A stretch of DNA of 31,073 bases from a virus (taxonomy: Duplodnaviria; Heunggongvirae; Uroviricota; Caudoviricetes): the IMG/VR virus record IMGVR_UViG_2602041669_000008; one strand, written 5' to 3'. The position numbers and the translations under genes are program-made. The stretch's first letter is position 1. Every line of letters begins with the position of its first letter. Below, in pieces: positions 1 to 11,833 of the stretch. The notes under the pieces were generated by a model. It worked only from the letters and a program-made list of their open reading frames with translations, was not told where the DNA came from and made no database searches.

Positions 1-1005
1 TTCATCATCCAGCACCACTTCTTTCACCGTGAAATACCCCGCGTTGATGTACTGCTGGAACGGCACATTTTTACGTCCACCGGACGCTATCAGGATGCCG
101 TTCTCCCGTAACCAGACAAACAGCGCGTTTTGCTTAAGTCCAACAACCTTTGCAAAATTCCCAATCAGGATCCCTTTAGCTACTGATACCCGGTCGGCAA
201 AATCGACTTTAGGAGCGGCGGCCACCAGCTGCTGATTTAGCTGGTGGGCTTTCTGTTCCAGAAGTTGCTTTTGTTCAGCCAGTTCGGCAGCCAGGCGTAG
301 GGCTTCAGGAAGCGTCTGGGGGATTGCGATCGGTTGCTGTTCTTTTTGTCGGAAGTAGCTGTCTTCCAGTTTTTCAAAGAATGCCCATGCCTGATCGGTT
401 TCGATCATTTTAGCGTGGCGGGCTGCGCCGCGTTCCGTCCAGAGAGTGAGGTTTCTGGCGTTCTTACCAACAGAGTTACTAAAAGTAACTCTGTTCTTAA
501 ATTCCTTTAATTTTGAACCAGTTAAAAGAAAGTAGTGTTTACCTTCTTCAAAGCGATCGGAGTTGCAAGACAAATTTTTACGAATATTGCCTTCATCGGT
601 TCCGTACCCCTTAGCAAGAGTTTCGGTCGTTACGACACGTACTCCCTGCCATTCCAGAACGGGAATTTCATCCGGCTGATTTTGAACAACCACCAGCTCC
701 GATTCCTGAGCTGAAGTTGCATGAATTTTTTCTGATTTAACGTTAGTTGCTTTCATTCTGTGTGCCTCCTTGCGTGCTTCGGCTGCGATGGTTGCGTAAT
801 TCAGATGCCCCTGTTCGAGCAGGTATTCACGGATATCAGACAACAGGATACGGTGAACCGCGTTCTTGTCCTTTCTCCGGTAAAGTTGTTTGGTGATCAT
901 GAAGTAGTTGGCAATAACGCCCGGTATATCCCTGGTACTGATACAGGCGGTATGCTGTTCAATTGCCTCGATCATCTCTTCACGGGTGACTAATGACGTT
1001 CTCAT
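1..1005 (-). CDS. ant: Antirepressor (Ant-type, KilAC-like C-terminal region), 3' end cut by the window edge
   Basis: ATG at 1003-1005 (MRTSLVTREE...) overlaps the stop of the upstream small ORF (ATGA); paralog of the complete 372-aa copy at 7480-8598. Confidence 0.7.
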   Translation of the reverse strand, partial: MRTSLVTREEMIEAIEQHTACISTRDIPGVIANYFMITKQLYRRKDKNAVHRILLSDIREYLLEQGHLNYATIAAEARKEAHRMKATNVKSEKIHATSAQESELVVVQNQPDEIPVLEWQGVRVVTTETLAKGYGTDEGNIRKNLSCNSDRFEEGKHYFLLTGSKLKEFKNRVTFSNSVGKNARNLTLWTERGAARHAKMIETDQAWAFFEKLEDSYFRQKEQQPIAIPQTLPEALRLAAELAEQKQLLEQKAHQLNQQLVAAAPKVDFADRVSVAKGILIGNFAKVVGLKQNALFVWLRENGILIASGGRKNVPFQQYINAGYFTVKEVVLDDE

Positions 1006-1196
1006 AGTCCCTCCTGAGCAGAAGCGTTAACAGGGAGGCACCAGTAACTGAGAGAATTGCGTGAATCAGTGGAAAAACGGGCAGAGAAAATGCAGGGAGC
1101 ATCCGGAAGCTGAGAGCGAGCCTCATCTTCTGTCGGTGCAATAACGAAGTGATAGTGACGTTTCTGGCAGGAGTAAAAGCGCCAGATAAATTCAGG
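1..1196. repeat. Direct repeat copy A (about 1.2 kb) matching 7588-8789; covers the icd-like ORF and the 5' two-thirds of ant; probably continues left of the window
   Basis: Positions 1-460 and 640-1196 align near-identically to 7588-8047 and 8230-8789; the track ORFs 29-235 and 7616-7822 are identical; a ~170-bp central patch is divergent. Confidence 0.85.
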
Positions 1197-1223
1197 GCGT
1201 GCGCAAGGATTGGCATTAACCAT
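1002..1223 (-). CDS. icd: Icd-like small protein (73 aa), translationally coupled to ant
   Basis: Track ORF; GAGG 9 nt upstream of ATG 1223; C-terminal 64 aa identical to the copy at 8595-8816, N-terminal 9 aa differ; size and position match P1 icd (from memory). Confidence 0.5.
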   Translation of the reverse strand: MVNANPCARPEFIWRFYSCQKRHYHFVIAPTEDEARSQLPDAPCIFSARFSTDSRNSLSYWCLPVNASAQEGL

Positions 1224-1382
1224 AGTTACGGCCTCATGTACAGGTTTAACAACCTGCTACCCGCTGCTAAACGGGTGGCAGGGCGTGACGGGGTTAGCAG
1301 ACTGGCGTACATGAAACCAGCAGGCCGAAGCCTCCCCATCACGCCCCACCATAATTTGGGCGTAACGCGGTTTTAGGGACAT

Positions 1383-1530
1383 AAAAATACCGCAATATCG
1401 GAAATCTGCGGTTGTCCGCATGTACATTCAGGCTGCTAAACCCGGTCGCAGAATTTGCTACGACGGCGGAACTATAAGCCTGAACGACAGGAAGATCAAT
1501 AGGGCAGTGTGCAATGGTAGTTTATTTTCC
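1383..1530 (-). ncRNA. Candidate c4-like structured leader/antisense RNA between a C1 operator and icd-like copy A
   Basis: Minus-strand hairpin ACCGCA/UGCGGU (1389-1412) followed by a U-run, about 145 nt downstream of the operator at 1541-1557; no ORF; sequence unrelated to the equivalent region of copy B. Confidence 0.3.
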
Positions 1531-1540
1531 TCAAAAAATC

Positions 1541-1557
1541 AAATCTATTAGAGCAAT
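1541..1557 (-). promoter_or_regulatory. C1 operator-like site (ATTGCTCTAATAGATTT, 16/17 to the consensus ATTGCTCTAATAAATTT as I recall it)
   Basis: Direct read of the minus strand; sits at the head of the icd-like/ant transcription unit. Confidence 0.6.
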
Positions 1558-1662
1558 AATGTTTGTGTGTTATTTTTGCACATGTTGAGCGTCATGGGGA
1601 ATTGAAATTTGTTTAAAACCTTGGCAACCTACTGTTTTTAATGCACTTAATAAGGTATGCAG

Positions 1663-1974
1663 ATGAAACTAGGTAATTTGTTAGCCGCAGCTATCGTTTT
1701 AACGATAACTGCATGTGCCGGAAAAGCTGAAAAAGACCCGCAATATGTAGCCGCAGAGAAATGTGCAGATTTAGTTATCACAAAATCAAAAGCTCTGGCA
1801 GAGAAAGGCATCAGTGGAAAATACGTACTTACATCAAAACTGCGTACAACTTCGACGTCTGATGGTCCATTCACATCAACACAAATCAGAGGCATTCCAT
1901 ATGCAACCTCTACGTTTCTTGATAACGGTAATGAGGGGAGTGCCTGGAGACAATGTATGGGGCCGCTATTGTAA
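1663..1974 (+). CDS. Putative lipoprotein (about 103 aa)
   Basis: Track ORF 1657-1974; second ATG at 1663 has AAGG 7 nt upstream; N-terminus MKLGNLLAAAIVLTITAC has a hydrophobic core and lipobox-like ITAC; AT-rich gene. Confidence 0.55.
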   Translation: MKLGNLLAAAIVLTITACAGKAEKDPQYVAAEKCADLVITKSKALAEKGISGKYVLTSKLRTTSTSDGPFTSTQIRGIPYATSTFLDNGNEGSAWRQCMGPLL

Positions 1975-2007
1975 GAATGAGTTGTTCCCCAAAAGGATTT
2001 GGGGATG

Positions 2008-2649
2008 TTAAAAATAGTTTCCCTTTCCAGTTAAGATTCCGTGTGGAACGCTTTTTTCCGCAAGTCTCTGTGTGCCGCGAATTATGTTAATCAGAGGGCT
2101 TAGTAACGATGGTTCCTGGCGTGCCTCAACTTCTCCAGCCATTGCCCTGATGTAGTCGGCGCTGGCAACGTTGTTGTATTCCGTCGCAAAGCAACATAGT
2201 AACGTCAGAACATGCTCTGTCGTTATTTCGCTCCAGTTGATGTTGAAAAATTCATCGCCTTTTTTATCGTGTTCGGAATCGAAGATGCTTTGGTGGAGGA
2301 TGTATTTGCCGGATTCCTTGCGCGGTAACTTGATCGCTTTCTGGCGTTCCAGCTCCTTGTAAATCTGCATTGCTTCAATCAGTACCGGCCTGCCGTTCAT
2401 GAAGGGATCGCGCAACCTTACACGCTGGCCAACTCGACCAGTAATAAAGCTGTTTTCCTCTTCCACCAGCACGATAAAACCCTTTTCCTCTTTTTCTCGC
2501 AATTCGCGCAGCAGCTGGAGTTCCATATCGCGGCGGCGTTCAGGGTAGCTGGTCCGCTCAGCCATTATCAGCTCGTTATTGATCCATGCAGCAGTCATTG
2601 ACGCCGGTTTGCCGACGCTCATCGAAACAACGCATATTTTCTTATCCAT
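2008..2649 (-). CDS. Hypothetical protein (213 aa); occupies the position of mat in the P1 order
   Basis: Internal ATG 2647-2649 with GGGGG 5 nt upstream, in frame with track ORF 2008-2796; no family recognised. Confidence 0.55.
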   Translation of the reverse strand: MDKKICVVSMSVGKPASMTAAWINNELIMAERTSYPERRRDMELQLLRELREKEEKGFIVLVEEENSFITGRVGQRVRLRDPFMNGRPVLIEAMQIYKELERQKAIKLPRKESGKYILHQSIFDSEHDKKGDEFFNINWSEITTEHVLTLLCCFATEYNNVASADYIRAMAGEVEARQEPSLLSPLINIIRGTQRLAEKSVPHGILTGKGNYF

Positions 2650-2661
2650 AGCGCCCCCTAC

Positions 2662-2689
2662 AAAAAAGAAAAGCCACCAGCGGCGGCTT
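2662..2689 (-). terminator. Intrinsic terminator-like hairpin plus U-run on the minus strand, just upstream of the 2649 start
   Basis: Minus-strand stem AAGCCGCC/GGUGGCUU (one G-U pair) followed by UUCUUUUUU. Confidence 0.45.
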
Positions 2690-2838
2690 AGCAATACAAC
2701 TGAAGGTAGCGCCCGGTACTCAGACTGTGCCGTCCATGGAATATTTGAAAAGGGATCCATCCGTACCGGGCGTGTGATGATTCTGACTGAAGTCACTTGT
2801 CAGTTGTCAATCATTTATCATTAAAAATAATATATTTA

Positions 2839-3399
2839 TTAGTGCATGATGTTTGCCATCTCATAGGCGTCAGCCAGTAACTCCATCTCTGACTTTTTCA
2901 GCAAGGTGAATTCTTTCTTGCCTCCAACCACACCATCGGCATGAACAGGGACCAGCCAGGGGTATTTTTCTCTTACTTCAGCCGGTGCTGCATGCTGGTG
3001 GTGCCATCTACAAAGTGGCAACTGCTTTTTGTGACAACCCGGCGCGGTACGACCGGAGATATGGTGCAGAGACACCTCTTCAGATATTACTCCATGCATA
3101 TAGCAGGCAATGCAGGGGAGAGCGCCAAGAGCATTGGCTATACGCCGTTCCTCCGCCGTCGGTGTTCGTCCCTTCAAGCCACGAGATTTTATTTTTACCG
3201 CACTTTTCCGCGTTTTGCTGGCTGGTGGGCGCTCTTTCTGTTTAGCGATACGGCGGTCGATAGAATCCCGCATTTTCTGATATTGCGATTCTCTCCAGGC
3301 GGGGTCAGCCAACTTTTCCCGTTGCCGAGCGATCGCTCGTTCTCTGGCTGCCTTCTGCCACTCGCGGCGCTGTTCAAGTTTTTGTTCGATTGTTTTCAT
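2839..3399 (-). CDS. ref: Ref-type HNH nuclease (186 aa; basic disordered N-terminus, Cys/His HNH motifs)
   Basis: ATG 3397-3399 in frame with track ORF 2839-3477; motifs CIACYMHG...HHISGR...CHKK...CRWHHQH; length and position next to cre match P1 Ref. Confidence 0.75.
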   Translation of the reverse strand: MKTIEQKLEQRREWQKAARERAIARQREKLADPAWRESQYQKMRDSIDRRIAKQKERPPASKTRKSAVKIKSRGLKGRTPTAEERRIANALGALPCIACYMHGVISEEVSLHHISGRTAPGCHKKQLPLCRWHHQHAAPAEVREKYPWLVPVHADGVVGGKKEFTLLKKSEMELLADAYEMANIMH

Positions 3400-3404
3400 A
3401 TGGC

Positions 3405-3430
3405 AAAAAAAAGGCGGCCTAATGGCCGCC
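3405..3430 (-). terminator. Strong intrinsic terminator on the minus strand ending 6 nt before the ref ATG
   Basis: Plus strand reads A8-GGCGGCC-TAAT-GGCCGCC, so the minus-strand RNA is a perfect 7-bp stem followed by U8. Confidence 0.7.
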
Positions 3431-3490
3431 AATGATGTCAAGGAGTTAAGTAATGGCAACGTCTTCGTAGTTGACAAAAACTGCGGCTAA

Positions 3491-3514
3491 ATTATAGCAA
3501 TCAATTAGAGCAAT
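3491..3514 (-). promoter_or_regulatory. C1 operator-like site (ATTGCTCTAATTGATTG, 14/17) abutting a TATAAT -10 on the minus strand
   Basis: Direct read; -10 TATAAT is plus 3491-3496 reverse-complemented; operator 3498-3514. Confidence 0.55.
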
Positions 3515-3580
3515 GGTAGATATTTTATTTATCGCGAATCACATTTTTTCACTTCAGTACCTGTGTGCTATACTCCTTCT

Positions 3581-3650
3581 TGATTGATTGGATGCGGAAT
3601 ACAAACCCGCTCTTTTGTGCAGCCTGGCTCCTTGCCAGGCTTTTTTATTT
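3581..3650 (+). ncRNA. Candidate small RNA (about 70 nt): extended -10 promoter, 5' motif UGAUUGAUUGG, intrinsic terminator
   Basis: TGcTATACT at 3566-3574; motif at 3581-3591; stem GCCTGGC/GCCAGGC (3622-3640) followed by TTTTTTATTT; no plus-strand ORF. Confidence 0.35.
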
Positions 3651-3956
3651 CATCATGGAAGCTGTTAACGCTTTGGATCTTGCTGAACTGATTGAAAGGG
3701 CATTGTTTACCTTACCCAGGAGTTCGCCAAATTCCGCCATCACTCTAGTAAGCCCGCGCCGCGCTTCCTCCTCCGTTGCATTCATCACAAAATGTTCAGC
3801 ACTCCGCATGCTTTTAACGGGGAACGCAACAGATATCGAGTCGATATCAGGCATCCTATCGCTCAACTTTACGGTGACAATGACAGATGGTGACTGAATT
3901 TGAGAGCTTACAGACAGCACCACATATTTTCCGTCTATTTTGAAATCCTTCCGCAT
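3645..3956 (-). CDS. Hypothetical protein (103 aa) directly downstream of cre
   Basis: Track ORF with protein-like composition; GGTGA 4 nt upstream of the ATG; the overlapping plus-strand ORF 3565-3897 is less protein-like. Confidence 0.5.
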   Translation of the reverse strand: MRKDFKIDGKYVVLSVSSQIQSPSVIVTVKLSDRMPDIDSISVAFPVKSMRSAEHFVMNATEEEARRGLTRVMAEFGELLGKVNNALSISSARSKALTASMMK

Positions 3957-3972
3957 GTGTCACCATAAATAT

Positions 3973-3989
3973 CAAATAATTAGAGCAAT
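3973..3989 (-). promoter_or_regulatory. C1 operator-like site (ATTGCTCTAATTATTTG, 14/17) between the cre stop and the downstream ORF
   Basis: Direct read. Confidence 0.45.
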
Positions 3990-4006
3990 CAAGCGTAAAT
4001 AAACGG

Positions 4007-5038
4007 CTAGTTGCCATCTTCCAGCAGGCGCACCATTGCCCCCGTTTCACTATCCAGGTTACGAATGTAGTTCATGACAATATTTACGTTGGTCCAGCCA
4101 CCAGCTTGCATGATCTCCGGTATTGAAACTCCGGCGCGGGCCATATCTCGCGCGGCACCGACACGGGCACTATGTCCAGACCAGGCCAGGTATCGCTGAC
4201 CAGAGTCATCTTTTGCCCCGTAAATCAATCGGTGAGTTGCTTCAAAAATCCCTTCCAGGGCGCGAGTTGATAGCTGGCTGGTGGATGATGGCGCGGCAAC
4301 ACCATTTTTTCTGACGCGGCAAAACAGGTAGTTATTCGGATCATCAGCTACACCAGAGACAGAAATCCATCGCTCAACCAGTTTAGTTACCCCCAGGCTA
4401 AGTGCCTTCTCTACACCAGCGGTGCTAACCAGCGTTTTCGTTCTGCCAATATGGATTAACATTCTCCCACCGTCAGTACGTGAGATATCTTTAACCCTGA
4501 TCCTAGAAATTTCGGCTATACGTAACAGGGTGTTATAAGCAATCCCCAGAAATGCCAGATTACGTATATCCTGGCAGCGATCGCTATTTTCCATGAGTGA
4601 ACGAACCTGGTCGAAATCAGTGCGTTCGAACGCCAGCGCCTGTTTTGCACGCTCACCGGCATCAACGTTTTCTTTTCGGATCCGTCGCATGACCAGTGAA
4701 ACAGCATTGCTGTCACTTGGTCGTGGCAGCCCGGACCGACGATGAAGCATGTTTAGCTGGCCCAAATGTTGTTGGATAGTTTTTACTGCCAGACCACGCG
4801 CCTGAAGATATAGAAGGTAATCGCGAACATCTTCAGGTTCTGCGGGAAACCATTTCCGGTTATTCAACTTGCACCATGCCGCCCACGACCGGCAAACGGA
4901 CAGAAGCATTTTCCAGGTATGATCAGAAAACGCCTGGCGATCCCTGAACATGTCCATCAGGTTCTTGCGAACCTCATCACTCGTTGCATCGACCGGCAAT
5001 GCAGGCAAATTTTGGTGAACGGTTAACGAATTAGTCAT
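4007..5038 (-). CDS. cre: Cre site-specific tyrosine recombinase (343 aa)
   Basis: Translation is near-identical to canonical P1 Cre as I remember it; differences noticed: N-terminus MTNSL instead of MSNLL, E39D, two A-to-S changes, C-terminal D-to-N; loxP lies about 820 bp upstream. Confidence 0.97.
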   Translation of the reverse strand: MTNSLTVHQNLPALPVDATSDEVRKNLMDMFRDRQAFSDHTWKMLLSVCRSWAAWCKLNNRKWFPAEPEDVRDYLLYLQARGLAVKTIQQHLGQLNMLHRRSGLPRPSDSNAVSLVMRRIRKENVDAGERAKQALAFERTDFDQVRSLMENSDRCQDIRNLAFLGIAYNTLLRIAEISRIRVKDISRTDGGRMLIHIGRTKTLVSTAGVEKALSLGVTKLVERWISVSGVADDPNNYLFCRVRKNGVAAPSSTSQLSTRALEGIFEATHRLIYGAKDDSGQRYLAWSGHSARVGAARDMARAGVSIPEIMQAGGWTNVNIVMNYIRNLDSETGAMVRLLEDGN

Positions 5039-5430
5039 TTATTATGCGTGATTTTAACAGTTAAGCCTTGTTCATGAAGTATCTCATCAATAATTCGAAT
5101 CACATCCCCTGGTAGATCATCGTTCTCGAAATATCTGTGATCGGGGATTTCTACAGTGATTGGGGTTGCTGCTTTATGCAAAATCCGAACAATCTTTTTT
5201 TCTTTTTTGCATGTTGCATATTCAGCCTCTTCGATATCTATCCAGCTCGCACCATCAAATTGCTGGTAAACCCGAGTGTATAGTAAGCGATTTCGCTTTA
5301 CTTCTTCTGCTAACTCCCAAATTGCAACAGCCATAGCACGTTCATTTTCATTCGTTCCAGGGTTAGCAGCTTTTTGTTTTGCGTCGTTCAGTAAGGCGTT
5401 TACCTTGGCATCTGTCAGGCCATTAAACAT
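5035..5430 (-). CDS. Hypothetical protein (131 aa) translationally coupled to cre
   Basis: Track ORF; GGTGA 3 nt upstream of the ATG; stop TGA overlaps the cre ATG (ATGA); no family recognised. Confidence 0.6.
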   Translation of the reverse strand: MFNGLTDAKVNALLNDAKQKAANPGTNENERAMAVAIWELAEEVKRNRLLYTRVYQQFDGASWIDIEEAEYATCKKEKKIVRILHKAATPITVEIPDHRYFENDDLPGDVIRIIDEILHEQGLTVKITHNK

Positions 5431-5449
5431 TCATCACCTCATGATCAAG

Positions 5450-5671
5450 TTAAATTATTGTTTTCAGCAGAGTGTACAGGATTGGCTCTGCCTTTACCTG
5501 GTTATGGTTCTCGTCATAGAAACGCCAGCGACCGCGCGTGCGTTCTATTTTCTCTTCACCGCGAGATAATGACAGTTGGTAACTATCACGCTCAAACCAT
5601 TTTGCCCGCCAGTAACCACGGTTTTTCTCAAGCTCAAGATGAGTGGACACTTTAGCAGCTGAATATCCCAT
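5450..5671 (-). CDS. Hypothetical basic protein (73 aa)
   Basis: Track ORF; GGTGA 3 nt upstream of the ATG, preceded by CCAATCAATCA; first gene of the unit ending in cre. Confidence 0.5.
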   Translation of the reverse strand: MGYSAAKVSTHLELEKNRGYWRAKWFERDSYQLSLSRGEEKIERTRGRWRFYDENHNQVKAEPILYTLLKTII

Positions 5672-5768
5672 TTTTCACCTCTGATTGATTGGTGGTGCTA
5701 AGTGCGCTACGCGAAATCTGGAGCACTAACACTGCCAACATTTCGCAGATTTTACGTAGCGCAACCTT

Positions 5769-5788
5769 GATCAAATGATCAAGTGATC
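5769..5788. promoter_or_regulatory. Cluster of three GATC (Dam) sites within 20 bp in the lox-proximal promoter region
   Basis: GATC at 5769, 5777 and 5785; Dam-sensitive cre promoters are described for P1 (from memory). Confidence 0.4.
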
Positions 5789-5860
5789 ACTATTTGACCT
5801 GATAAGGTATTGAACTGTATGGATTTACAGGTAAATTAATCATGTTCAATAACCCTTAAG

Positions 5861-5894
5861 ATAACTTCGTATAATGTATGCTATACGAAGTTAT
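5861..5894. other. loxP: loxP site (13-bp inverted repeats around an 8-bp spacer)
   Basis: Exact match ATAACTTCGTATA-ATGTATGC-TATACGAAGTTAT. Confidence 0.98.
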
Positions 5895-7479: not shown

Positions 7480-8598
7480 TTATTCAGCCGCCACCGGTTT
7501 TAACAAGCCAGCATCGAGCAGTTTACGCGTCAACCACTGCTGGCCTTTACCCGTTAATTGGGGCGTCAGCCGTATCTGGTAGCCATTTTCATCATCCAGC
7601 ACCACTTCTTTCACCGTGAAATACCCCGCGTTGATGTACTGCTGGAACGGCACATTTTTACGTCCACCGGACGCTATCAGGATGCCGTTCTCCCGTAACC
7701 AGACAAACAGCGCGTTTTGCTTAAGTCCAACAACCTTTGCAAAATTCCCAATCAGGATCCCTTTAGCTACTGATACCCGGTCGGCAAAATCGACTTTAGG
7801 AGCGGCGGCCACCAGCTGCTGATTTAGCTGGTGGGCTTTCTGTTCCAGAAGTTGCTTTTGTTCAGCCAGTTCGGCAGCCAGGCGTAGGGCTTCAGGAAGC
7901 GTCTGGGGGATTGCGATCGGTTGCTGTTCTTTTTGTCGGAAGTAGCTGTCTTCCAGTTTTTCAAAGAATGCCCATGCCTGATCGGTTTCGAGCATTTTAG
8001 CGTGGCGGGCTGCGCCGCGTTCTGTCCAGAGGGTGAGTGAGCGAACATTGCGAGCAATTTTTACAGAGTAGTTTAAAGCTACTCTGTGCTTCAACTCGCG
8101 CAATGATTCTCCTTCAACTTTGAAAAAGTGCTTCCCTTCAACAAAGCGTACTTTGTTCTCATGATGATTTTGGCGAATACGGATTGTTTCTGTCCCATAC
8201 CCTCTAGCAAGAGTCTCGGTTGTCACTACACGCACTCCCTGCCATTCCAGAACGGGAATTTCATCAGACTGATTCTGAACAACCACCAGCTCCGATTCCT
8301 GAACTGAAGGTGCATGAATTTTTTCTAATTTAACGTTATTTGCTTTCATTCTGTGTGCCTCCTTGCGTGCTTCGGCTGCGACGGTTGCGTAATTCAGATG
8401 ACCCTGTTCGAGCAGGTATTCACGGATATCAGACAACAGGATACGGTGAACCGCGTTCTTGTCCTTTCTCCGGTAAAGTTGTTTGGTGATCATGAAGTAG
8501 TTGGCAATAACGCCTGGTATATCCCTGGTACTGATACAGGCAGTGTGCTGTTCAATTGCCTCGATAATCTCTTCACGGGTGACTAATGACGTTCTCAT
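7480..8598 (-). CDS. ant: Antirepressor (372 aa; Bro-N/Rha-like N-terminal region, KilAC-type C-terminal domain)
   Basis: Track ORF; C-terminal motif ...VAKGILIGNFAKVVGLKQNALFVWLRENGIL...; start overlaps the icd-like stop (ATGA). Confidence 0.8.
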   Translation of the reverse strand: MRTSLVTREEIIEAIEQHTACISTRDIPGVIANYFMITKQLYRRKDKNAVHRILLSDIREYLLEQGHLNYATVAAEARKEAHRMKANNVKLEKIHAPSVQESELVVVQNQSDEIPVLEWQGVRVVTTETLARGYGTETIRIRQNHHENKVRFVEGKHFFKVEGESLRELKHRVALNYSVKIARNVRSLTLWTERGAARHAKMLETDQAWAFFEKLEDSYFRQKEQQPIAIPQTLPEALRLAAELAEQKQLLEQKAHQLNQQLVAAAPKVDFADRVSVAKGILIGNFAKVVGLKQNALFVWLRENGILIASGGRKNVPFQQYINAGYFTVKEVVLDDENGYQIRLTPQLTGKGQQWLTRKLLDAGLLKPVAAE

Positions 8599-8789
8599 AG
8601 TCCCTCCTGAGCAGAAGCGTTAACAGGGAGGCACCAGTAACTGAGAGAATTGCGTGAATCAGTGGAAAAACGGGCAGAGAAAATACATGGGGCGTCAGGA
8701 AGCTGAGAGCGGGCCTCATCTTCTGTTGGTGCAATAACGAAGTGATAGTGACGTTTTTGGCAGGAGTAAAAGCGCCAGATAAATTCAGG
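7588..8789. repeat. Direct repeat copy B (matches 1-1196)
   Basis: See copy A; divergent patch at about 8047-8225, inside ant. Confidence 0.85.
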
Positions 8790-8816
8790 ATGAGTTGGGG
8801 TAGGGATAGTAGCCAT
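8595..8816 (-). CDS. icd: Icd-like small protein (73 aa), translationally coupled to ant
   Basis: ATG 8814-8816 with AGGAGG 8 nt upstream, in frame with track ORF 8595-9044; MATIPTPTHPEFIWRFYSCQ... Confidence 0.5.
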   Translation of the reverse strand: MATIPTPTHPEFIWRFYSCQKRHYHFVIAPTEDEARSQLPDAPCIFSARFSTDSRNSLSYWCLPVNASAQEGL

Positions 8817-8981
8817 ATTGGCAGCCTCCTTAGACGTTGGTATGTAACCACCGCAGAAGAGACCAATCTTGCTGGCGGTGGACTGTACGGAGTTGGCCTT
8901 ACTGGCGTCCAAGGTAACCAGCCTACCCGAAGGTAGCCCCATACAGCCCACCATTGTAGAGGTGTGCGTGTACGCCGATAC

Positions 8982-9125
8982 AAAAAAAAGACGCGAGCGG
9001 CGTCTGTATCGCCTTAGACTTAAGCGGGAGGCCAATCCCGGCACCCGTTTTAATGAGGTGCCTGATAAGCATAAACCGAAAATGCCTCAAGGCGCAAGAG
9101 GTCAGGCTCAATGTAACATCGGTAG
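8982..9125 (-). ncRNA. Candidate c4-like structured leader/antisense RNA upstream of icd-like copy B
   Basis: Begins just below the operator at 9136-9152; hairpins GGCACC/GGUGCC and CGGGA/UCCCG; ends in stem AGACGC/GCGUCU plus U8 (8982-9005); no ORF. Confidence 0.35.
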
Positions 9126-9135
9126 TTAAAAAACA

Positions 9136-9152
9136 CAATTTATTAGAGCAAA
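9136..9152 (-). promoter_or_regulatory. C1 operator-like site (TTTGCTCTAATAAATTG, 15/17) heading the icd-like/ant unit
   Basis: Direct read; lies immediately after the pacB stop. Confidence 0.6.
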
Positions 9153-10640: not shown

Positions 10641-11833
10641 TAATCATCATCCCCGTATAGCTTGCGGGTAACTTCTTCGTCTTCCTCCTCGTCTTCGTCC
10701 AGGTCTTGTTCCAGCCATGGGTCGTTTGATACACCTTCAGTATCAACATCTCCATAACCGCCTGTATCAACGATATCGGCGATTTCTTCCCTACGCTGCT
10801 CAATCCACAATGCGGCATCGGCGCGGCGGTTGGCGGCCCGTTCTCGCGCAACTTTGTCCAGATCTTCAAGAGAAGGGCCACCGACGGCTGTTTGCCTTTC
10901 CTCATCATCGGTATTGGTCTTAGGAGCACGCAGATCGGCTTTGATTTGCTCCAGCATCAGGGGCGGCACTTTCCCGCCATGCGCCTCGATGAATTCAGCT
11001 GCTTCCAGCACTGACCAGTTATTTTCACGCTTTCGTTCGTATGCCAGCTTAACAATGCCAGCTTGCCCCATAGACAAAGCGTGCTTTTCCGCCTCCCGGC
11101 TTTCTTTTCGATAGTTATTCCGGATGCTGTAAATGGTGTTGATCAGGCTGCTTATCTGCGCGGAACAGCTGTTTAGCATGCTCGCGATACGGTATTCAGG
11201 CGGAGTACCTTCATCATCGTCTTTTTGCTGATCGCGCATTTCCTGCACCAGGCGAATACACGTATCCCTGGCGTTCTCCAGCATAAGGAGATGAGAAAGA
11301 GACTTTTCCAGAAGAGTGGTTTCCAGAACATCGGCCCCGGACCGACGCAACATAGCGCGCGCGGCCTTCCGCGCTTCAACGTTATCTATCAGGTAATCGC
11401 CAGCTTCGAATTCAAAGCGTTCACCATCATCATCCAGGGTGTCGCGTTCCAGGCGATCACGTAAGGTCCGGTGGGCGCGGGTGATCACGTCATGATCATC
11501 AGAACGATCATTTATGCGCTTATTCTGGCGCTTCGCGTTCTCGACTGCGGCACTGACAACAGCATTAACTCTTTGTTTTTCAGCCATTTCAGCCACAATG
11601 TGATCACCTGCACGTTGATCATTAGCGTGATCAATGATCATGCTTTTTAGTGGTTTTCTGACAGGCTTATTTGGCTTACGGCTGTCCGCTGTTCCGGTGT
11701 CTTCTTTGAATGCACGGAGATAACGACGTGCGGTGTTTGGGTTGAGATTAAACTCGGCGGCATATTGTGCGATGGTGTAACCACCATCTCGCGCCAGGCG
11801 AGCAAAATTCTTCTTGTGATCGTCCCAGGTCAC
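10640..11833 (-). CDS. pacA: Terminase (pacase) small subunit PacA (397 aa); contains the pac site
   Basis: Track ORF; GTG start with AAGGAAG 5 nt upstream; pac hexanucleotide repeats lie inside its 5' third. Confidence 0.8.
11482..11640. other. pac: pac packaging site: 3 + 4 TGATCA-type hexanucleotide repeats, each with a Dam GATC
   Basis: Repeats at 11482, 11493, 11505 and at 11601, 11616, 11628, 11635; matches the P1 pac architecture (from memory). Confidence 0.8.

Follow-up and report, generated by a model that had tools for sequence, protein, structure and literature searches.

Gene content of the locus

The DNA under study, IMGVR_UViG_2602041669_000008, is 31,073 nt long; we refer to this whole stretch as the window, and coordinates are those of the window unless another record is named. 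Close to its left end, next to the maturation control gene mat, lies a plus-strand gene encoding a small prolipoprotein (Table 1), which is the subject of this work. The surrounding sequence (1400-2100) is 100% identical to p95JB1A (NZ_CP021336.1) and p95NR1A (NZ_CP021340.1), two P1-like phage-plasmids of ~87 kb from O111 strains of Escherichia coli that make Shiga toxin (STEC), and we took the local gene order from the RefSeq annotation of the p95JB1A record together with P1 (NC_005856). Homology to P1 (95-98% identity) starts at 2007, one base beyond the mat stop codon, and picks up again in lxc, ~143 bp to the left of the window. Between these two points P1 3470-9742, carrying res and mod::IS5, is swapped for 2149 bp (window -142 to 2006) that hold a c4-icd-ant immunity module and the lipoprotein gene. 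The lipoprotein cassette itself is compact (~0.45 kb) and AT-rich, with a GC content of 0.343 in 1558-1662 and 0.426 in the coding sequence (CDS) vs 0.476 for the whole window. Together with the c4-icd-ant module it replaces the EcoPI restriction-modification genes res-mod of P1 at the site known as RD-1.

A reading made earlier from the letters of the window, here called the sequence-only reading, had placed an AT-rich plus-strand lipoprotein gene at the res-mod position of P1, reached leftward from cre through a small open reading frame (ORF), ref and an ORF in the position of mat. Synteny comparison with P1-like elements bears out this layout: the small ORF is c8 of P1 and the ORF in the mat position is mat itself. 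The same reading had seen neither restriction nor methyltransferase motifs anywhere in the window, which holds as far as tested, as no such enzyme is found in the RefSeq annotation or, by Pfam, in the 10 largest unnamed ORFs. We also looked for res and mod just left of the window, where their presence would have spoken against a replacement. The RefSeq annotation of the source plasmid has neither gene there and lists instead the remainder of ant, followed by lxc, ulx and darB; the end of DarB, which has an N6-methylase domain and an anti-restriction role, lies ~0.9 kb left of the window. The interval originally marked (1541-2007) is correct for the gene but starts too far to the left, since its first 17 positions are a C1 repressor operator. 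The operator is part of the c4-icd-ant operon, which runs leftward, rather than of the lipoprotein gene, and the portable block described below (boundary 1582) does not include it. In the whole window we observed 11 C1 operator sites vs 0.18 expected by chance.

The res-mod site RD-1 is a published cargo hot-spot of P1-like elements (Venturini et al., 2019, PMC6906374), called 'region 1' in another study (PMC9603915). For pSvP1, RD-1 is listed as '7 orfs including icd-ant1/2 homologs', with best matches to CP021336 and CP021340 (Venturini et al., 2019, PMC6906374). This variant of RD-1 has already been seen in outline in that work, in which the lipoprotein ORF is not discussed. A search for att-like sites or flanking repeats around the cassette returned short chance repeats only. 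In pSvP1_F and pEC21Z048-103K, RD-1 has two extra genes between ant and lxc (locus coordinates 3116-4357), encoding a helix-turn-helix (HTH) regulator and a DUF3944 protein, and RD-1 cargo is therefore modular even among lipoprotein carriers.

Table 1. Features at the left end of the window and the basis on which each was assigned.
Feature	Position	Strand	Basis
ant antirepressor, KilAC domain (gene cut by window start)	1-1005	-	RefSeq annotation of source plasmid
icd-like cell-division inhibitor gene	1002-1223	-	NCBIfam phage_ICD_like, 2.5e-13; RefSeq
C4 antisense RNA gene, immI-like module	1271-1356	-	Rfam RF01695, 72.1 bits
a1/b1 targets of C4 antisense RNA	1425-1477	-	Rfam RF03163, 55.5 bits
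C1 repressor operator ATTGCTCTAATAGATTT, 1 mismatch to consensus	1541-1557	-	DNA motif search
Prolipoprotein gene, 103 aa	1663-1974	+	ORF; RefSeq WP_000766013.1, identical coordinates
Cys18 codon, predicted lipid-modified first mature residue	1714-1716	+	Sequence and lipobox scan
mat, maturation control	2008-2649	-	blastn vs P1; P1 annotation
ref	2839-3399	-	Pfam RecA_dep_nuc, 3.7e-50
c8 of P1	3645-3956	-	
cre	4007-5038	-	

The gene and its predicted product

An AAGG Shine-Dalgarno-like site (1652-1655, plus strand) stands 7 nt before the start codon, which we favoured over an in-frame ATG at 1657 because the latter is too near the AAGG. The protein begins MKLGNLLAAAIVLTITA/CAGK, where the slash marks the end of the signal peptide (residues 1-17), and its lipobox I-T-A-C18 conforms to the PROSITE-type rule (MK...LTITA/C18 for the pattern [LVI][ASTVI][GAS]C, with a basic n-region and the Cys between residues 15 and 35). 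The mature protein would have 86 aa, among them the family-wide invariant C34 and C98. Residue +2 is Ala, for which the Lol sorting rule of E. coli predicts the outer membrane, so that the predicted location is the periplasmic face, or inner leaflet, of the outer membrane.

Compared with the alleles of the F plasmid and of plasmids from enterotoxigenic E. coli (ETEC; ~92.6-93.3% nucleotide identity), the gene has 12 synonymous and 9-11 non-synonymous differences. The resulting dN/dS of 0.22-0.27 between P1-type and F-type copies indicates that the gene is under purifying selection. Because of this ratio, the AAGG site and the relatives at 28-60% identity in other genera, we consider it a real gene and not a chance ORF. 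An antisense ORF (1647-1895, minus strand) was rejected, as conservation follows the plus-strand frame. Between the convergent lipoprotein and mat genes lies a hairpin with an 8-bp GC-containing stem (UCCCCAAA/UUUGGGGA, 1986-2005; -11.2 kcal/mol, z = -2.37), which is kept in the F-type copy and was not called by the terminator scan. It could act as a weak two-way terminator.

Distribution and transfer to the F plasmid

Among PLSDB plasmids 101 carry the CDS, as do 94 of the 5426 complete E. coli genomes. The P1-type allele (at least 95% identity) accounts for ~16-17 copies, or ~2.5% of 660-690 mat-bearing plasmids; P1, P7 and most of the ~690 mat-bearing plasmids lack the gene. Where it occurs in P1-like elements it is always accompanied by the c4-icd-ant module, and the order is constant: darB, ulx, lxc, optionally the HTH and DUF3944 genes, ant, icd, c4, lipoprotein, mat. 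As expected of a moron, the gene is present or absent between collinear relatives and deviates in GC content (0.34-0.43 vs 0.476). Regarding the promoter and terminator that are also moron traits, no consensus promoter was called, and the block that contains the gene survives as a unit on F.

This block comprises 515 bp (1582-2096, plus strand); it starts 81 bp upstream of the CDS and runs through the CDS and the hairpin into mat, of which it takes in the last 89 bp. It has ~91% identity to F (NC_002483.1 2092-2607) and to ETEC Ent plasmids including NC_017640.1 (locus coordinates 8001-8516; blastn, MAFFT). F-type alleles make up the ~84 remaining copies. The copy of the classic F plasmid (NC_002483.1 2214-2531) lies between the IS3-interrupted finO and hok/srnB-RepFIC, and in porcine ETEC Ent plasmids the F-type copy sits in the F backbone beside the IS-bounded eltAB island. 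We rejected a functional tie to the heat-labile (LT) enterotoxin, since the ETEC copies lie within the shared F backbone finO-yuaA that happens to be next to this island.

On F, the 89 bp from the mat 3' end are 85% identical to P1 mat (E = 1.8e-22) and the similarity ends beyond them. As a truncated piece of P1 mat is joined to the cassette, a transfer from a P1-like element to the F backbone is indicated, and we infer that the direction was from phage-plasmid to F. It would thus seem that F acquired its 'yuaA' as a piece of a P1-like phage-plasmid. Gene flow from phage-plasmids to plasmids is known generally (PMC10879196).

The rarity of the gene among mat-bearing plasmids and E. coli genomes, the F copy as a clearly captured fragment and the fact that no function is known for it could all be explained if it were a functionless passenger, a hitch-hiking remnant retained because it sits in a recombination hot-spot. 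Purifying selection argues against this, as do the frame, lipobox and motif that are intact across genera at 28-60% identity and the repeated recruitment by at least five types of element (see below). We therefore regard a mere passenger as highly improbable.

A small family of Enterobacterales

A word-indexed search of 5.8 billion proteins returned close E. coli copies only, while an exhaustive HMMER search of 1.84 billion representatives gave 22 hits, including proteins of 100-130 aa with 28-60% identity. The family is small, with members in Enterobacterales. Residues 1-103 match positions 3-105 of the 105 in the profile phrog_16031 (E = 2.6e-69), which is also matched by all 21 of the aligned relatives; PHROG 16031 is of unknown function. 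The family alignment has the invariant residues C34, Y80, D87, G92, W95 and C98, and the motif IPYxxSTxLDNGxxGSAWRxCM is conserved in both family alignments that we made. The lipobox scan recognised 31 of 37 family members; those without a lipobox are mostly fragments, plus two proteins with plain signal peptides, and no relative in the scan has Asp at +2. Given how well the lipobox or signal peptide is conserved, the protein should work in the periplasm. Source records name it 'hypothetical protein' or 'Lipoprotein', and 'Uncharacterized protein YuaA' is the name given to the F-type copy in one plasmid record.

Pfam and NCBIfam scans of the protein found no family match, PADLOC defence models gave 0 families at E <= 1, and family members scanned singly gave weak matches to lipoprotein signal peptides only. 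Neither the window protein nor a Providencia relative had a tblastn match in 50,697 phage records (P1 included), and PDB sequences searched with a profile gave no match. A spanin or other lysis role was considered and rejected, as the single match to an Rz-like PHROG is at the level of the signal peptide (E = 0.2), a partner gene is missing and the gene lies outside the lysis cassette. AlphaFold without an alignment was useless (pLDDT 40); with the alignment pLDDT rose to 77, and to >90 over much of the mature domain. The predicted fold consists of a helix, a beta-hairpin and a second helix, and finds no match in the PDB copy searched, which includes Llp (8a60_B, 7qjf_A). On these models the family would be structurally unrelated to known exclusion lipoproteins. 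Literature searches with accessions, the PHROG identifier, yuaA and the genes between traT and traD returned nothing relevant on the family; it is uncharacterised and not described in the literature found.

The sequence-only reading had suggested superinfection exclusion through receptor blocking and a comparison with Cor- and Llp-type proteins. The comparison gave no homology beyond the signal peptide: profile comparisons with Cor, Llp and Bor align 16-21 columns, covering the signal peptide and lipobox only, and hhalign against N15 Cor aligns 16 columns of the signal peptide with a probability of 14%. Weak matches to phrog_1119 (Cor) come from 3 of 21 members, with a best E of 0.0064 and a matched stretch that was not inspected. 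Judged by these alignments, the protein is not a member of the Cor, Llp or Bor families. It could nonetheless work as they do, attaching on the periplasmic side to a single phage receptor of the outer membrane (e.g., a TonB-dependent transporter) and locking it in a state unusable by phages. Its size class, lipobox and predicted location are those of Llp and Cor, it has extra cysteines as Llp does and possibly a disulfide, and its relatives occupy moron positions in temperate phages. On the chromosome of Buttiauxella the copy is two genes away from tonB and the gene of a TonB-dependent receptor, a weak argument that may reflect coincidence. Beyond the missing homology, the predicted fold is unlike that of Llp although Llp was in the PDB copy searched, no gene for a receptor-binding protein adjoins the lipoprotein gene, and two relatives would be soluble in the periplasm without a lipid anchor. 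Additionally, P1 adsorbs to lipopolysaccharide, which fits poorly with self-exclusion via a protein receptor. We rate the blocking of a single receptor as unlikely.

Genomic contexts of distant relatives

Relatives of the gene occur on several kinds of temperate phage. In a lambdoid prophage of Providencia one stands alone, opposite in strand to its neighbours, in the interval that separates the lysis cassette from terminase and holds bor in lambda. An HK97-type prophage has a relative with a plain signal peptide upstream of the small terminase gene, again on the opposite strand, and filamentous (inovirus) prophages of Pectobacterium have a lone, opposite-strand copy between the Zot/secretin module and Xre/integrase genes. 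In Enterobacter plasmids of ~88 kb, which are non-mobilizable and carry the phage-type genes DUF968 and Ead/Ea22, the relative stands at a different position, again singly and on the opposite strand; these plasmids are probably another type of phage-plasmid.

Conjugative plasmids provide a second setting. In IncF plasmids of Enterobacter and Leclercia the relative is found inside the tra operon, ~45-60 bp after traT and on the same strand, with the order traG, TraS-position gene, traT, family member, small ORF, traD and traI. Pfam confirms TraG_N and TraT (1.3e-80) among the neighbours in the Enterobacter plasmids, the traT-adjacent protein is joined to the family with an hhalign probability of 99.9% (E = 4.7e-36), and the junction of traT with a family member recurs in at least 29 plasmid records. 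In the Enterobacter plasmids the small ORF behind the family member, still ahead of traD (locus coordinates 5558-5869 in one and 4555-4866 in another), encodes 103 aa and has no Pfam match.

These positions bear on the idea that the lipoprotein serves the fitness or virulence of the host (serum resistance as by Bor/Iss or TraT, adhesion or stress tolerance) and has no role against phages or plasmids. The Providencia locus is of the same kind as lambda bor, on the opposite strand between the lysis genes and cos/terminase; traT, which the plasmid relatives adjoin, also gives complement resistance; and the gene is carried on STEC and ETEC plasmids. Nevertheless, there is no homology to Bor or TraT, the link to eltAB in ETEC reflects just the shared F backbone, and carriers of the gene also include the laboratory F plasmid as well as genera associated with plants and insects. 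A host-fitness or virulence function seems improbable.

Chromosomal relatives form a third group. In Buttiauxella the gene lies between cls/bhsA-like genes and yciI-tonB, and in Photorhabdus, Dickeya and other chromosomes the contexts are unrelated. In three species and metagenome-assembled genomes of Scandinavium, in Pseudescherichia and in two metagenome contigs, the relative follows 10-23 bp downstream of, and on the same strand as, a gene with SBP_bac_3 and SLT domains (MltF-like), which in the Scandinavium clade is itself preceded by a DsbD/redoxin gene and msrA. The whole conserved same-strand run of Scandinavium and its relatives (locus coordinates 1261-5360 in one record) reads DsbD_TM/redoxin, MsrA, MltF-like transglycosylase, family lipoprotein, and may be a cluster for envelope repair or remodelling. 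One such locus labelled Chryseobacterium is ~95% identical to Scandinavium and probably mislabelled or contaminated.

The MltF-like neighbour raises the question of whether the protein acts in the periplasm on an enzyme that cuts peptidoglycan, be it a lytic transglycosylase or a lysozyme, either as its partner or as an inhibitor comparable to Ivy, MliC, PliC and T4 Spackle. Chromosomal copies would then control the MltF-like enzyme, and mobile copies might blunt the wall-piercing enzymes of incoming phages or control an enzyme of their own; Sit of P1 has a transglycosylase domain. The pair is kept despite differing downstream neighbours and a divergence of the lipoprotein to 55% identity, the predicted periplasmic location fits, and the invariant loop could act as an inserting loop. 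On the other hand, the adjacency belongs to one related clade and may be inherited synteny, it is absent in Buttiauxella, Photorhabdus, Dickeya and all mobile copies, and PDB searches found no similarity in sequence or fold to Ivy, MliC, PliC or Spackle. We find this explanation quite unlikely.

Proposed function

From its genomic contexts, we read the product as an accessory lipoprotein of the envelope that probably serves exclusion or protection. As a general reading we propose that it acts in the envelope to shield its carrier cell, by superinfection exclusion or entry exclusion, and we put the probability of this at about one half. The proposal follows from three observations: the recurring moron positions, in four temperate phage kinds other than the P1-like elements; the pairing with the c4-icd-ant immunity module in the window; and the place of the plasmid relatives in the exclusion segment traS-traT, with traT as the gene just before them.

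A possible course of events can be outlined. The gene would be expressed from an assumed promoter of its own in the plasmid-prophage state, as a gene of the moron or lysogenic-conversion type. Signal peptidase II would cleave the product, the lipid anchor would be attached at Cys18, and the Lol pathway would deliver the protein to the outer membrane's periplasmic face. There the domain of helix, beta-hairpin and helix might be stapled by a C34-C98 disulfide, with the invariant loop LDNGxxGSAW exposed as a binding surface. Binding of an envelope component could then block incoming DNA-delivery machines, be it in phage superinfection or in conjugative entry. This would provide an envelope layer of defence, distinct from the DNA restriction that was displaced.

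Several points weigh against carrier-cell protection. We found no functional data or literature for any member of the family, and searches with Pfam, NCBIfam, PADLOC, PDB and hhalign turned up no characterised exclusion, immunity or inhibitor protein that is homologous or similar in fold. The receptors of the carrier phages differ, so that a single target for self-exclusion is not obvious. The chromosomal members of Buttiauxella, Photorhabdus and Dickeya lie in unrelated, non-mobile contexts, which could point to a housekeeping role in the envelope instead. The traT-adjacent copies are one clade (~70-80% mutual identity, estimated by eye) and therefore amount to few independent observations, and the MltF-adjacent cases are also essentially one clade. 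Finally, no consensus sigma-70 promoter was called upstream of the gene, and the hairpin downstream has no U-tract.

A more specific form of envelope protection can be imagined, in which YuaA/PHROG-16031 is a new class of outer-membrane-tethered periplasmic inhibitors of peptidoglycan-cleaving entry enzymes (e.g., lytic transglycosylases) and thereby a generic barrier to DNA-delivery machines. Such an activity would cover the MltF-like neighbour, the place after traS-traT and the moron positions in five temperate phage kinds, including the res-mod slot of P1. We offer this idea as a long shot.

Other features of the window

The window has two immI-like modules, at 1-1560 and 7480-9152, whose ant and icd genes are 91.5% identical (1-1196 vs 7588-8789). 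Each has a C4 RNA (the second at 8871-8958) and a C1 operator (the second at 9136-9152). Their leaders differ, the first matching c4-a1b1 of Rfam and the second isrK (8984-9061). The second module has c1 on one side and pacB on the other, a location already reported for pTZ20_1P and RCS47 (Venturini et al., 2019).

Compared with P1, the window also has a 412-bp insertion (5042-5453) between cra and cre. Its ORF (5035-5430, minus strand) overlaps the start of cre and encodes a hypothetical protein of 131 aa (WP_000481733.1). At the same junction the P1-like plasmid AP026456.1 carries a RelE toxin and regulator pair (locus coordinates 10767-11432), and the cra-cre junction looks like another small cargo site. 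AP026456.1 furthermore has two plus-strand genes in the position of ref, between mat and c8 (locus coordinates 7843-9125), a layout which suggests that ref is replaceable too.

Significance

Small lipoproteins of phages and plasmids are a recurring means of altering the cell surface against competitors, and few families of them have been studied (Llp, Cor, TraT, Bor). An unrelated family is now seen on F, on P1-like phage-plasmids of STEC and ETEC, in the tra operons of clinical Enterobacter plasmids and in several types of prophage. The captured block is a tangible case in which the F backbone appears to have taken up DNA of a P1-like phage-plasmid. Since the gene is present in F+, Hfr and F' laboratory strains, its function is open to simple plating, mating and fractionation assays. 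Should these give no phenotype, it would be one more hypothetical cargo gene in a known hot-spot.

Comparison with known systems

T5 Llp and the Cor proteins of N15 and phi80, which inactivate FhuA, are the closest in kind: they too are small phage prolipoproteins with a lipobox and extra cysteines, expected on the periplasmic side of the outer membrane and accessory to the phage, and they protect the carrier, as the present protein may. The predicted helix-hairpin-helix fold does not match the structures of Llp, however, and whereas T5 has llp beside the gene for its receptor-binding protein (oad-llp), the neighbours here are mat and the c4 operon.

With Bor of lambda and Iss the protein shares the form of a ~100-aa lipoprotein encoded by a lone opposite-strand gene, and its Providencia relative the very interval from lysis genes to terminase; it differs in sequence, with hhalign aligning the signal peptide only and no Pfam match to Bor. 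The entry-exclusion proteins TraT and TraS of F-like plasmids are comparable in position, since relatives follow traT directly in the same operon segment, and TraT is likewise an outer-membrane lipoprotein. TraT is more than twice as large as our protein, in which Pfam finds no TraT domain (PF05818), and the copy on F lies outside tra, beyond finO.

Among inhibitors of cell wall enzymes, Ivy, MliC, PliC and T4 Spackle are also small, periplasmic or lipid-anchored disulfide proteins, to be compared with a family whose Scandinavium member adjoins the gene of an MltF-like transglycosylase. There is no match in sequence or fold, and this adjacency is confined to one clade.

Within P1 itself, SimC, the product of the sim superimmunity genes by c4 in the native immI, presumably also has a signal peptide and is encoded next to the promoter of c4 in an immI module. 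It differs in that the lipoprotein gene is divergent from c4, the portable block stops before the C1 operator and no phage record, P1 included, is matched by tblastn. The remaining counterpart is the EcoPI res-mod system of P1, unrelated in sequence and size. It occupies the identical slot, from mat to lxc, and where P1 has restriction and modification genes the present element carries a lipoprotein without nuclease or methyltransferase domain, which would act at the envelope and not on DNA.

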